Shown here: piece after piece, positions 28,083 to 30,294 of the stretch
Numbering within the stretch: position 1 is the stretch's first letter
Layout: each line of letters opens with the position of its first letter
Assembly: GCA_021647805.1 (NCBI GenBank)
Contig: JAKITZ010000001.1
Location: 1-32,854, forward strand
DNA length: 32,854 nucleotides
From: Robiginitomaculum sp.
GTDB lineage: Bacteria > Pseudomonadota > Alphaproteobacteria > Caulobacterales > Maricaulaceae
Direction: 5' to 3'
Translations under genes and position numbers: made by a program
The notes under the pieces: generated by a model
The model's database searches: none
The model's input: only the letters and a program-made list of their open reading frames with translations
Told to the model about the DNA's origin: nothing

Positions 28083-28928
28083 GTGGCGGTGAGAGTGGCT
28101 ACTTATGCTTATCACAGCAATCCAGCTTATCTTGGTGCGCTTTATTCGGTAACCAATGGCAATGTAACTTACCTGCACAAGGATCATCTCGGTTCGGCAA
28201 GCACGGGTACGATTGGCAATGGAGTTAACGCAGGCAACATTGCGTGGAACGAACAATACACACCATTTGGCGAGACTATCCTTAACCCGGCGGCAAATGA
28301 TAACCTTGATGGATTTACCGGACATATCAAGGACAAAGCCACCGGCCTGAACTACATGCAGGCGCGTTATTACGATCCGGCACTGGGTAGGTTCCTAAGC
28401 ATTGATCCGGTAGAGTTTAGCGCGGAAAGACCGGGAATGTTCAATCGTTATACTTATACATACAACGATCCAATAAACTTTACTGACCCAACGGGTATGG
28501 TCGGTGGTTGCGACAGCTGCTGGACGGACATGTATAATTCTGGGATGTCTGCTGAGAGTGCTACGATTGCTGAAGCTGGTTTTCGCCCATATAGTGAAGC
28601 GTTTGCAAAAGGCACTTTGATTGGTGCAACAATGACACCTATTGGACGGGGTGTGTCAGTAGGTATAGGTATTGCAACTAGAATTCTAACGAAAAAAGCA
28701 CTGACAACATCGCAGAAAAAAGCAGTTCGAAGCATGAAGAAGAATATAAAAGAGCATAAAGCTAGAATCAAATCAGAGAGGAAGAACCCTACTGTTAAGC
28801 CTGAAATGGTTGGTAAAACTACCAAGAAACAGCAGAAGCAACAACGTAAAACGCGAGAAAACAAACACAAACGTGATATAAAAGACTGGAAGAAACAAAT
28901 TAAAGAAATCAAGAAAGAAGCGCAATGA
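28083..28928 (+). CDS. Orphan Rhs C-terminal module: end of the RHS repeat-associated core (to DPTGM, nt 28499) fused to an unrecognised 142-aa C-terminal (toxin) domain
   Basis: ...NGNVTYLHKDHLGSAS...YTPFGE...DGFTGHIKDKATGLNYMQARYYDPALGRFLSIDPVEF....FNRYTYTYNDPINFTDPTGM is the conserved Rhs core end (YYDPxxGRF...DPxG). The variable tail that follows is VGGCDSCWTDMYNSG...GTLIGATMTPIGRGVSVGIGIATRIL...K/Q/R-rich. There is no N-terminal Rhs shell, PAAR or VgrG. The GTG start is nominal, and the frame is open from 28038. Confidence 0.8.
   Translation: MAVRVATYAYHSNPAYLGALYSVTNGNVTYLHKDHLGSASTGTIGNGVNAGNIAWNEQYTPFGETILNPAANDNLDGFTGHIKDKATGLNYMQARYYDPALGRFLSIDPVEFSAERPGMFNRYTYTYNDPINFTDPTGMVGGCDSCWTDMYNSGMSAESATIAEAGFRPYSEAFAKGTLIGATMTPIGRGVSVGIGIATRILTKKALTTSQKKAVRSMKKNIKEHKARIKSERKNPTVKPEMVGKTTKKQQKQQRKTRENKHKRDIKDWKKQIKEIKKEAQ
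28084..28098. repeat. 15-bp duplicate of the tRNA-Ser 3' end (att-like direct repeat; partner at 30204-30218)
   Basis: tggcggtgagagtgg is identical at both sites. The second copy is the reverse complement of the last 15 nt of the tRNA, including CCA. The repeat coincides with the left boundary of the Rhs-derived material. Confidence 0.55.
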
Positions 28929-29407
28929 GTTCTGGTTTAAATCAAGAAGCATATGAAGGGCTTTGTGGAAAATTCACCAAGCTTGAAAATGTCACTAGCA
29001 TGGAGTTTAGAACAACTTCTCCATCTTTGGCGTTAATCCATCTTCAAAACAAAGTAGATGACACTATGTTTGAAAAAGCTGTCATACACTTACTCGATAA
29101 CAAAGTGGAATATTTTTGCCTATCTGGCGCAGACGCTTCAAGCTTGCATGATGCTGTTGATGATACCATCATTGATGGCGGGTATGAAAAGAGGGGTTTT
29201 TTTAGAGACCTCTTTAGACCTAAAAACATACTTACCAGTTTTCACGTTGACGAAGGTATGAGTGATATACTCAACATGATAGAATTTACCGCTAGATATA
29301 AAAAGCTGAACCGGATCATAAATGTAATTTACGACCAACCTTCACCTGCAATAGATTATTTGAAAAATGTTTTGAAAAAAAATGATAGGTATTCACCCAG
29401 ACCTTAA
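28925..29407 (+). CDS. Candidate cognate immunity protein (hypothetical, 160 aa)
   Basis: The ATG overlaps the toxin stop (gcgcaATGAgt), and the same strand and AT-rich composition continue from the toxin tail. This is the standard position for Rhs/CDI immunity genes. I recognise no family motif. Confidence 0.55.
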   Translation: MSSGLNQEAYEGLCGKFTKLENVTSMEFRTTSPSLALIHLQNKVDDTMFEKAVIHLLDNKVEYFCLSGADASSLHDAVDDTIIDGGYEKRGFFRDLFRPKNILTSFHVDEGMSDILNMIEFTARYKKLNRIINVIYDQPSPAIDYLKNVLKKNDRYSPRP

Positions 29408-29614
29408 ACGCTAGGCTGCAACCTTTACACACCCGTACTGCCAAGCCGGGCGGATCAGTGGCACTTGATTATACCTATGCTTATGATGCTCGTGGTAAAG
29501 TCATCAGCATTACCGATGCAGTAACTTCGGCCAACAATCGGGTATATGCTTATGATCAATTGGGTCGGTTAACTACTGCCGCTGGGCCATGGGGTGCGGG
29601 TAGCTTTGGTTATG

Positions 29615-29691
29615 CTTCGTAGGTGGTTGGCCAACGGTCAAATAATTGATCCGGGGGATCAAATATAACCGAAGAAGGCCACGGCAGTGGC
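29615..29691 (+). mobile_element. 77-nt hairpin-rich mini-insertion, copy A (non-autonomous; no TIRs; subterminal palindromes)
   Basis: cttcgtaggtggttggccaacggtcaaataattgatccgggggatcaaatataaccgaagaaggccacggcagtggc is 67/77 identical to copy B by hand alignment. It contains palindromes gttgg/ccaac, a long hairpin at 29642-29666, and gccac-ggca-gtggc. Confidence 0.65.
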
Positions 29692-29857
29692 TTGGTAATA
29701 TCCGTACCAAGACGCTTGGTTCGCGCAATATCATCAACACTTACAACAATGCCACTAATATGGTTACGCAGACCGCAGACAGTGTCAAAGGCACTCGTGC
29801 CATAAGCCATGATGCCCGTGGTAATGTTATCTCGCTTGGCGCACAGAACTTCACTTA

Positions 29858-29934
29858 CTTCGTAGTTGGTTGACCAACGGTCAAATATTCAGTCCGGGGG
29901 ACTGAATATAACCGAAGAAGGCCACTGCAGTGGC
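29858..29934 (+). mobile_element. 77-nt hairpin-rich mini-insertion, copy B
   Basis: cttcgtagttggttgaccaacggtcaaatattcagtccgggggactgaatataaccgaagaaggccactgcagtggc. The long hairpin at 29885-29909 is a perfect 11-bp stem. Three of its base pairs differ from copy A on both strands. Confidence 0.65.
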
Positions 29935-30203
29935 GTCGGATCAACCGGTATTGATCAGCGGCTCGGCCAGTGGTAGTTATCTGTATGATGGCAATCGTAA
30001 GCGGGTGAGAAGCGTGGTAAATGGCAAGACTATTTATAACGTTTATGATGCAAGTGGCACGTTGATCCATGTGGACGATACCAGCACAGCGAAGCAAACA
30101 GACTATATCGGCAAGATCGCTCGGATAACCAATGGCAATGTAACGTATTTGCATAAAGATCATCTTGGTTCGGCGAGTTCTGGTACCACCAGCACCGTAG
30201 CAA

Positions 30204-30294
30204 TGGCGGTGAGAGTGGGATTCGAACCCACGGTACGCTATTAACGCACACACGCTTTCCAAGCGTGCGCCTTCGACCACTCGGCCACCTCACC
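30204..30294 (-). tRNA. tRNA-Ser (anticodon GGA), type II with a long variable arm and encoded CCA
   Basis: The reverse complement is GGTGAGGTGGCCGAGTGGTCGAAGGCGCACGCTTGGAAAGCGTGTGTGCGTTAATAGCGTACCGTGGGTTCGAATCCCACTCTCACCGCCA. The acceptor pairs GGTGAGG/TCTCACC, the anticodon stem is CACGC/GCGTG with loop TTGGAAA, the variable arm is GTGCG...CGTAC, and the T arm is GTGGG-TTCGAAT-CCCAC. Confidence 0.93.

Follow-up and report, generated by a model that had tools for sequence, protein, structure and literature searches.

An orphan Rhs toxin-immunity cassette beside a tRNA-Ser gene, carrying a candidate helical-hairpin toxin and a DUF7684 partner

Orphan Rhs modules (rhs 'core-extension' orphans) are known from Salmonella Typhimurium, E. 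coli, Dickeya and Serratia. Here we describe an element of this type from a 32,854-nt stretch of DNA (the window), a complete contig of a metagenome-assembled genome (MAG) labelled Robiginitomaculum sp. at NCBI; of this MAG the analysis covers the one contig. Positions 28083-29407 of the window hold an orphan Rhs toxin-immunity cassette, which lies in a small AT-rich islet beside a tRNA-Ser gene. Like the modules already described it consists of a 5′-truncated core ending in DPxG, a variable C-terminal (CT) toxin region and an overlapping immunity gene; its guanine-plus-cytosine (GC) content falls below that of the core, and the end of the core provides homology usable in recombination. Unlike them, it does not follow a main rhs gene on the contig, it has tRNA-Ser on one side and a repeat of that gene's 3′ end on the other, and its composition breaks some 60 codons inside the CT region, after a shared linker. 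As an element type the orphan Rhs toxin-immunity cassette is well known. What appears to be new, on the strength of sequence comparison and structure prediction, is the hairpin toxin family at its C-terminal end (for which no model, structure or paper was found), the very small all-helical fold of that family, and its link to the Pfam family DUF7684.

Small basic RNase toxins with acidic immunity proteins are a familiar theme, represented by colicins E3, E5 and D, the CdiA-CT tRNases and barnase/barstar. The pair described here is similar in that its toxin is basic and its immunity protein, encoded directly downstream, is acidic, soluble and cytoplasmic, in its conserved His, Arg, Lys and Glu residues, and in its use of scaffolds of the Rhs and CdiA types (a sister subtype is found on a protein with a signal for the type VII secretion system, or T7SS). 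It differs in its fold: the ∼75-aa hairpin is all-alpha with two helices, which no known RNase fold resembles, and it has neither a family nor a structure match. A second point of comparison is provided by the glycine-zipper toxins. TspA and Tse5-CT are small helical depolarising toxins of this kind. The same may be said of EsxX, which shares with the window protein a small, helical, non-enzymatic-looking CT domain and a G/A-rich segment, and for which it has been found that a soluble immunity protein can neutralise a glycine-zipper toxin (PMC12744356). In the window, by contrast, the G/A-rich segment is an unconserved linker, and what is conserved is a coiled-coil hairpin of hydrophilic character; the window locus has no membrane immunity protein, and no sequence similarity to the glycine-zipper toxins was detected.

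The first of the two cassette genes is an open reading frame (ORF) of 281 aa on the forward strand (28083..28928), recorded at NCBI from a GTG at 28095 as a 277-aa 'RHS repeat-associated core domain-containing protein' (MCF6291783.1). Of an Rhs core it retains no more than the last ∼135 aa, which are followed by a 142-aa tail. Residues 59-139 (28257..28499, forward strand) define the Rhs-associated core end: they match TIGR03696 (Rhs_assc_core) with E = 1.3e-23 and 83.2 bits (cutoff 32.5) and include YYDPALGRF...IDP and NDPINFTDPTGM, the latter being the last residues of the core, which closes at nt 28499. Alignment to Rhs/TcC proteins in the PDB covers the last ∼110 residues of the solved shells and stops at the core end. 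Both comparisons thus agree with a first-pass annotation of this DNA, which had set the end of the core at nt 28499. The DPxG...DPxG autoproteolysis motif is present, as judged from TIGR03696 and from alignment to solved Rhs/TcC core ends; the core end is the autoproteolysis region and at the same time a conserved recombination substrate.

Upstream of this ORF no YD-repeat shell (∼1000 aa or more) was found: the preceding gene encodes a TonB-dependent receptor on the opposite (minus) strand. Nor did we find within the ORF a PAAR domain, a signal peptide or any other N-terminal secretion or loading domain. Judged from its sequence, what the window holds is an orphan 3′ fragment: with neither shell nor export signal it should not be deliverable as an Rhs protein. 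Across the contig there are zero ORFs longer than 700 aa, and a full-length rhs gene was not found on it. A truncated core, a variable CT region, an adjacent immunity gene and a break in composition, by which orphan cassettes are recognised, are all present at the locus. A swapped-in toxin-immunity cassette had been proposed by the first-pass annotation, and this idea holds: the CT region occupies the toxin position, and the partner ORF accompanies it in other genomes.

The 142-aa tail contains, as previously described, the sequence VGGCDSCW, a G/A-rich stretch and a very basic end, but it is not, as had been supposed, a toxin domain over its whole length. The module is ∼75 aa long, and the first ∼60 aa are a shared linker. 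This pre-toxin linker (CT aa 1-63; 28500..28688, forward strand) begins with a Cys pair in GGCDSCW, continues with SGMSAESATIAEAGF and ends with the G/A-rich PIGRGVSVGIGIATRIL; an AlphaFold2 (AF2) model built with four sequences gives a predicted local distance difference test score (pLDDT) below 50 over CT aa 1-64. Similar linkers occur elsewhere. The form LPPEGTVSGELFSGHSLEHAQGISDAFAPASEAGF.G...P.G.G, of which the window linker is a variant, is common to P0001, P0015, P0018 and P0026, while ETRLMVEAHHLDMDV... is common to P0003, P0027, P0030 and P0032. The C-terminal domains of P0018, P0026 and P0027 are unrelated to the hairpin (one is Ntox24-like), and because the same linkers precede these unrelated toxins, the Cys part and the 'glycine zipper' are assigned to the linker. 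The Cys pair is itself recurrent: two cysteines 2-5 residues apart are found no more than ∼10 residues after the DPxG motif in the window (28506-28520, GGCDSCW) and in P0014, P0021, P0023 and P0028, as variants (CDSC, CAGAC, CDGPSTC, CESIATC and CGTC) set in otherwise differing linkers.

The composition of the locus changes part by part. GC content is 0.469 in the core and stays close to that in the linker (0.505 over CT codons 1-35, then 0.429 over the G/A-rich stretch); it is 0.363 for the hairpin and 0.362 for the immunity ORF, and returns to 0.490 downstream from 29408. The break therefore lies at ∼28680, about 60 codons past the end of the core, and not exactly at the core/toxin junction at 28499, to which the first-pass annotation had assigned the shift towards AT-richness. 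The exchangeable module begins at about nt 28689, where GC falls. At six other loci the hairpin and immunity cassette likewise lies 3-27 GC points under the adjoining Rhs body (at least 10 points in four of them), and since this offset recurs we regard the cassette as moving as a unit.

The module itself, CT aa 64-142 (28689..28925, forward strand), is a helical-hairpin domain delimited by AF2, hhalign, sequence alignment and its GC content. AF2 predicts a confident helix-loop-helix, with pLDDT ∼90 over CT aa 70-95 and 109-141. Helix 1 (aa 70-95) contains a near-invariant His86, the tip loop reads KNPTVKPEMVG, and helix 2 (aa 109-141) contains QQ114-115, Arg119, His123 and Trp130. In an alignment of 60 sequences (window CT numbering) Met103 is conserved in 100%, His86 in 98%, Pro101 in 97%, Arg119 in 95%, Thr98 in 92% and Asn96 in 88%, and the hydrophobic heptad positions are likewise conserved. 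The window copy keeps all of the near-invariant residues: H86, N96-P97-T98-V99-K100-P101, M103, Q114-Q115 and R119. The domain is strongly hydrophilic, with a grand average of hydropathy of −1.85 (family median −1.23). Its last 80 aa have an isoelectric point (pI) of 10.8, with 30 K+R against 8 D+E and a net charge of +22, compared with a family median of +4.5 for the last 75 aa. The basic, probably helical tail of roughly 75 aa that had been reported earlier is thus borne out for the window, the helices by prediction; its basicity is lineage-specific, however, since the hyper-basic tail is specific to a rare subfamily of about seven sequences, and we rejected the polybasic tail as a family-wide property.

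Relatives of the window hairpin fall into a narrow, hyper-basic family and a broad family with the tip NPTVRPGME, whose consensus is K.IRSL.KQI..H..KL..F..NPTVRPGME....I..QQ..R..HL..EI.TF..NI.KIK. The two are joined by hhalign (96.7% probability, E = 4.7e-10, 66 columns), and the window loop, KNPTVKPEMVG, is intermediate between the narrow and broad types. Homology at the profile level, across both helices and the tip loop, is also seen in P0016, P0017 and P0020-25, recovered at E values of 4e-9 to 9e-6 among 1.84 billion proteins. Narrow-family members are few. A word-indexed search of 5.8 billion clusters returned three relatives, and an exhaustive profile search of 1.84 billion representatives returned 22 proteins at E≤0.001. 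The motif KPEMVGKTTKKQQ is present in about seven sequences, one of which is a full-length Rhs protein of 1536 aa with a Sec-like leader (L004). The narrow subfamily was not found among 185,579 species-representative genomes, and a scan of JGI metagenomes gave two loci, one of them already known and the other a weak partial match (37% identity over 59 residues). A 15-sequence alignment proved too diverse for the locus scanner.

The broad family, on the other hand, has 50 loci in representative genomes, 15 of which are short orphan copies like that of the window. Hosts include Caulobacter, Neisseria, Burkholderia, Mesorhizobium, Corallococcus, Acidobacteriota, Planctomycetota, Verrucomicrobiota, Spirochaetales and Campylobacteraceae, and the phyla represented are Pseudomonadota, Acidobacteriota, Planctomycetota, Verrucomicrobiota, Spirochaetota, Myxococcota and Campylobacterota. 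In full-length Rhs proteins of several architectures (DUF6531, SpvB with FG-GAP, and teneurin-like with NHL) the chain ends with the hairpin, which is also C-terminal on CdiA/two-partner secretion proteins, downstream of a VENN motif. A third, sister subtype has the loop (K/R)(N/D)P(D/E).FDNKG.LKNAP and occurs in Actinomycetota and elsewhere; its carriers are the Rhs protein P0015 and the T7SS-signal protein L059, at the C-terminus. Its partner is a distinct immunity family of ∼100 aa with the motif F(Y/W)..IP....Y..P......GQL(S/T)(D/E) and no Pfam model (examples are L010:5256-5579 and the downstream ORFs of L052, L056 and L059). A survey of other scaffolds, which the first-pass annotation had suggested, accordingly finds the toxin of the pair on both Rhs and CdiA, and the sister subtype on a T7SS-signal protein. 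On these profile matches the hairpin is a member of a widespread polymorphic-toxin C-terminal family that has no curated model.

Some features of individual relatives deserve mention. L004 (4969-9579, narrow hairpin) and P0015 (sister subtype) are full-length Rhs proteins with Sec-type signal peptides in which PAAR was not seen, and P0026, which shares their linker but has an unrelated toxin, starts in the same Sec-type manner; Sec-type starts without PAAR suggest delivery by a route other than the type VI secretion system. The L004 Rhs gene is preceded by a gene for a 1030-aa fn3-containing protein. In two metagenomic contigs mobility genes lie beside the cassette: a relaxase and DUF3363 at L005:1182-3390, and a resolvase and tyrosine integrase at L010:6902-8732.

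The second cassette gene (28925..29407, forward strand) encodes 160 aa (MCF6291784.1, L3J04_00155, 'hypothetical protein') and, as reported in the first-pass annotation, starts inside the stop codon of the toxin ORF through an ATGA overlap. It matches the DUF7684 model PF24733 with 25.3 bits and E = 1.3e-5, the gathering score being 26. Nine of nine close relatives match the same model (best E = 7.8e-7), and the partners of the broad-family toxins at L011 (41.1 bits) and L014 (35.0 bits), which are tied to the window ORF by the family profile, exceed the gathering score. These profile matches indicate that the 160-aa ORF is a DUF7684 superfamily member. The Pfam name records no function; the tie to a toxin family is made here.

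The association between the two genes is consistent. Within the narrow family the pair was seen in all seven loci examined, with partner ORFs of 149-151 aa that overlap or abut the toxin stop and show 42-46% identity to the window ORF. In the broad family a profile of the window's own immunity family recognises the downstream ORF in 30 of the 50 loci, and in 47 after one iteration; the remaining three belong to the third subtype, with its own immunity. The pair is also present in L008/L009. The earlier claim that the Rhs protein ends in an unrecognised toxin domain, to which an immunity gene is translationally coupled, is therefore upheld, both by this pairing across loci and by the lack of a curated family or structure match. 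AF2 models the immunity protein as a Rossmann-like beta-alpha sandwich (pLDDT 76, predicted template modelling score 0.75), for which Foldseek against the PDB gives generic Rossmann-like domains (best E = 0.02) and no significant neighbour. The protein is acidic (pI 5.8; family median 4.5). Transmembrane segments and signal peptides are lacking in the window protein and its family: a signal-peptide-like N-terminus is absent from 55 of 56 immunity proteins, and the median best 19-residue hydrophobicity is 1.19. Conserved motifs of the family are G..SE.LHD.ID..I and I.TT.H..E. The downstream ORF is probably a member of the dedicated immunity family of the hairpin, and we propose on these grounds that Pfam DUF7684 has an immunity role.

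Searches for a described relative of the toxin were negative. The 142-aa tail had zero matches in Pfam, NCBIfam and PDB sequences; a hit to a well-characterised toxin family, which the first-pass annotation had named as refuting it, was not obtained there, and the pairing with the downstream ORF, whose absence elsewhere it had named as well, recurs in other genomes. Searches of Pfam, NCBIfam, PADLOC, PHROGs and PDB sequences with broad-family hairpins returned no model or structure for the hairpin. What did appear for the CT region, the immunity protein and the hairpins was sub-threshold coiled-coil noise (AAA_11, YidC, XaxA/MakE/HBL, LmuB, tape-measure proteins, IF1 and YheS). Foldseek with the CT model gave nothing in the PDB at E≤0.001. 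Literature searches on DUF7684 and on the sequence motifs found nothing relevant. In Zhang et al. 2012 (PMC3482391) the motif strings are absent and none of the table entries returned fits the hairpin family; one supplementary file of the Levy-lab preprint likewise contains no motif match for its nine 'PT' toxins.

Several specific identities were considered and set aside. Tox-WTIP (PMC3482391) has two transmembrane helices, RxxR and Wx[ST]IP; neither motif occurs in the CT region, and there is no Pfam match at E≤1. HEPN RNases are four-helix proteins with Rx4-6H, while helix 2 has R-x2/3-H only and no Pfam or NCBIfam HEPN match was obtained. Membership of Ntox16 was rejected for absence of its motifs or hidden Markov models. 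A resemblance to ribosomal protein bS21 is one of composition only and was backed by no search.

Together these data lead us to a reading of the locus that we consider reasonably probable: an orphan Rhs cassette made up of a core end, a linker of ∼63 aa, a hairpin toxin of ∼75 aa and a coupled immunity gene, with the roles and mechanism that follow. In this genome the cassette likely supplies immunity against neighbours that fire the hairpin toxin, and the conserved homology of its core end likely makes it a reservoir with which a full-length rhs gene can recombine. In full-length relatives the Rhs shell would free the C-terminal piece by autoproteolysis; the hairpin, possibly aided by the hydrophobic linker, would reach the cytoplasm of the target cell and there attack a universally conserved component. 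Action in the cytoplasm is most likely because the sole immunity protein is cytoplasmic and is kept by orphan cassettes, and a universal target is suggested because the hosts span many phyla. Polymorphic toxins act with few molecules per contact and are nearly always enzymes or membrane poisons. Because contact-dependent systems deliver so few molecules, a catalytic or amplifying action is a priori likelier than a stoichiometric one, and because the toxin is basic and its immunity protein acidic, an attack on structured RNA is favoured. Our best guess, a tentative one, is that structured RNA (tRNA or rRNA) is damaged catalytically or captured very tightly, perhaps after dimerisation. Substrate recognition would fall to the tip loop NPTV(R/K)P(G/E)M, and a cluster of His86, Lys/Arg89, Arg119, His122/123 and Glu/Asp126 on facing helices would do the chemistry, perhaps requiring dimerisation into a four-helix bundle. 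His86 lies ∼17 residues before the centre of the loop and Arg119 ∼16 after it; because these distances are nearly equal the two should face each other. Neutralisation would come about by 1:1 binding of the acidic immunity protein to the hairpin.

A number of observations weigh against this proposal. No homology of the hairpin to a nuclease or other enzyme was found, Foldseek returns generic helical hairpins only, and a 75-residue coiled-coil hairpin is very small for an enzyme. His86 occupies a heptad 'd' (core) position and so may have a structural role; the R..H spacing of helix 2 differs from the Rx4-6H motif of HEPN proteins; and the net charge of the hairpin ranges from −9 to +15 across the family, which weakens the case for general nucleic-acid binding. 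As to the window copy, neither a promoter above chance before the ORF at 28083..28928 nor a full-length rhs gene on the contig was found, and the toxin part here may be a silent relic.

This last point raises the question of whether the cassette is functional in this genome at all, and bears on the structure of the islet in which it resides. The left edge of the islet is a 15-nt attachment-site (att)-like direct repeat, TGGCGGTGAGAGTGG (28084..28098), an exact copy of the 3′ end of tRNA-Ser(GGA). The tRNA gene lies at 30204..30294 on the minus strand (ARAGORN; Rfam RF00005, 59.2 bits), and its 3′ end constitutes the right-hand copy, 28084-28098 and 30204-30218 being identical at 15 of 15 nt. 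A direct repeat of a tRNA 3′ end at the far boundary is a trait of tRNA-targeting islands. The left-hand copy of TGGCGGTGAGAGTGG encodes the first codons of the toxin ORF (MAVRV); Rhs-like sequence begins in frame directly after it, with nothing Rhs-like further upstream in that frame. The 2.1 kb between the repeats contain the cassette and a degraded Rhs core fragment only (29458..30203, forward strand), the latter recognised from ORFs and translations, repeats and comparison by eye with the intact Rhs protein P0015. It ends at the tRNA and is broken by two structured inserts of ∼70-90 nt. In intact Rhs proteins this region sits N-terminal to the 28099-28499 piece (again by eye, against P0015); the order of the pieces in the islet is therefore permuted. 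A 61-nt repeat of 84% identity (28150-28210 and 30126-30186) connects the two Rhs pieces. No integrase gene was found within the 2.1-kb islet, whose neighbours encode MsrA, a CMD-family protein, RNase PH and HrcA.

The islet shows some further features. Across the att-like core both reading frames keep their phase (..TSTVAMAVRV on the right, MAVRVATYAY.. on the left), and a circular or tandem intermediate would fuse the two Rhs pieces into a single ORF. The structured insert, of ∼75-90 nt, is present in two copies (29615-29704 and 29858-29947) that are 82% identical and lie inside the degraded Rhs fragment. As single-stranded DNA the copies fold with −15.4 kcal/mol (z=−3.2) and −22.6 kcal/mol (z=−6.1); base changes in the central hairpin compensate for each other (TTGATCC/GGATCAA versus TCAGTCC/GGACTGA), and a CTTCG...CGAAG stem closes the structure. 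The insert has no Rfam family and no further copies in the contig; it could be similar to miniature inverted-repeat transposable elements or to repetitive extragenic palindromic sequences. A sigma-70-like site (GCGACA, 17 nt, TATAAT; 10 of 12 matches) is located directly after the Rhs core end at 28510-28538 on the forward strand. It could allow independent transcription of the hairpin and immunity genes, although such sites are not above chance in the region.

One could argue from this architecture that the locus is what is left of a decayed tRNA-Ser island, in which the toxin ORF would be a pseudogene and the two products of no consequence to the cell. An islet composed solely of Rhs fragments, permuted and broken by inserts, an ORF whose start derives from a tRNA, a promoter signal that does not rise above chance, and the lack of both an integrase in the islet and a full-length rhs gene on the contig are all in keeping with decay. 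We nonetheless think such an origin doubtful. Both ORFs are intact over 441 codons and their coupling is kept, every residue invariant in the family is retained, and orphan cassettes of the same type account for 15 of the 50 loci; in Salmonella and E. coli orphan cassettes are known as functional reservoirs. The evidence for decay is moreover limited to this 32.8-kb contig of the MAG.

A further possibility concerns the mode of action: the G/A-rich helix might insert into the inner membrane and the amphipathic basic hairpin oligomerise at its face, giving a depolarising or pore-forming toxin similar to Tse5-CT, TspA or EsxX. A moderately hydrophobic, G/A-rich segment does precede the hairpin in most Rhs-borne members (clearly hydrophobic in L004), few delivered molecules suffice for a pore, and there are weak, sub-threshold coiled-coil matches to the alpha-pore-forming XaxA, MakE and HBL. 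EsxX moreover provides a precedent in being a glycine-zipper toxin sequestered by soluble, cytoplasmic ExiAB (PMC12744356). The properties of the segment nevertheless make membrane action unlikely. The first-pass annotation had described a glycine-zipper-like hydrophobic stretch; a G/A-rich stretch is indeed there, but it is not strongly hydrophobic, its best 19-residue Kyte-Doolittle mean being 1.24. Across the family the median best mean for the pre-hairpin segment is 1.07, a value of at least 1.6 is reached in 6 of 50, and CdiA-borne copies are without a hydrophobic segment (0.14 and −0.81). Rhs proteins whose toxins are unrelated (P0018, P0026) have this segment too, as expected of a linker, and it was therefore rejected as the toxic element. 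The conserved part, in contrast, is very hydrophilic. A membrane immunity gene was seen at no locus; EsxX requires the membrane proteins ExiCD against incoming toxin, whereas the orphan cassettes here keep the soluble protein only. Between membrane insertion and nucleic-acid binding, which the first-pass annotation had left undecided, the evidence leans away from the membrane.

That the hairpin is instead a non-enzymatic plug, its tip loop entering some channel or cleft and so obstructing an essential machine stoichiometrically (in the RNA polymerase secondary channel, at a ribosomal site or in F1-ATPase), is quite improbable, because stoichiometric inhibitors are rare among contact-delivered toxins, the delivered dose being low; there is also no significant similarity to factors that act in this way, and the middle of the hairpin, at a distance from the tip, has a second cluster of conserved polar residues. 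The idea draws its appeal from the tip loop NPTVRPGME, the most conserved element of the domain (M 100%, P 97%, T 92%), from a domain too small for a typical enzyme, and from PDB 'matches' that are confined to helical-hairpin or coiled-coil factors (DksA2, IF1 and the ABC-F protein YheS), all of them non-significant (Foldseek E≥2.5; profile E 0.39 or weaker). Gre/DksA-type factors use the RNA polymerase secondary channel, and the hairpin resembles known channel-probing hairpins in shape and length.

A bolder version of the hairpin-toxin reading, which we entertain with considerable reserve, would make the ∼72-residue coiled-coil hairpin a new class of interbacterial toxin, with a fold unlike that of any known enzyme or pore former. 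It would kill by means of its invariant tip loop, either as a minimal dimeric RNase or as a plug in some cytoplasmic machine that is conserved universally, with DUF7684 as its dedicated immunity fold. The family is spread over Rhs and CdiA proteins in at least seven phyla, to which the sister subtype adds T7SS carriers and Actinomycetota.

The C-terminal domains of polymorphic toxins have been a source of new biochemistry, as exemplified by DddA, Tas1 and the ADP-ribosylation of RNA. For the window itself the implication is more modest: in this MAG of a marine alphaproteobacterium it contains an orphan cassette that probably provides immunity. For the family, a toxin-immunity pair that is unnamed in the databases is now defined, with carriers that include Neisseria, Burkholderia and Caulobacter. 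Given that the toxin is small and simple its target should be tractable, and there would be a use for a short, peptide-like antibacterial module whose target is universal.

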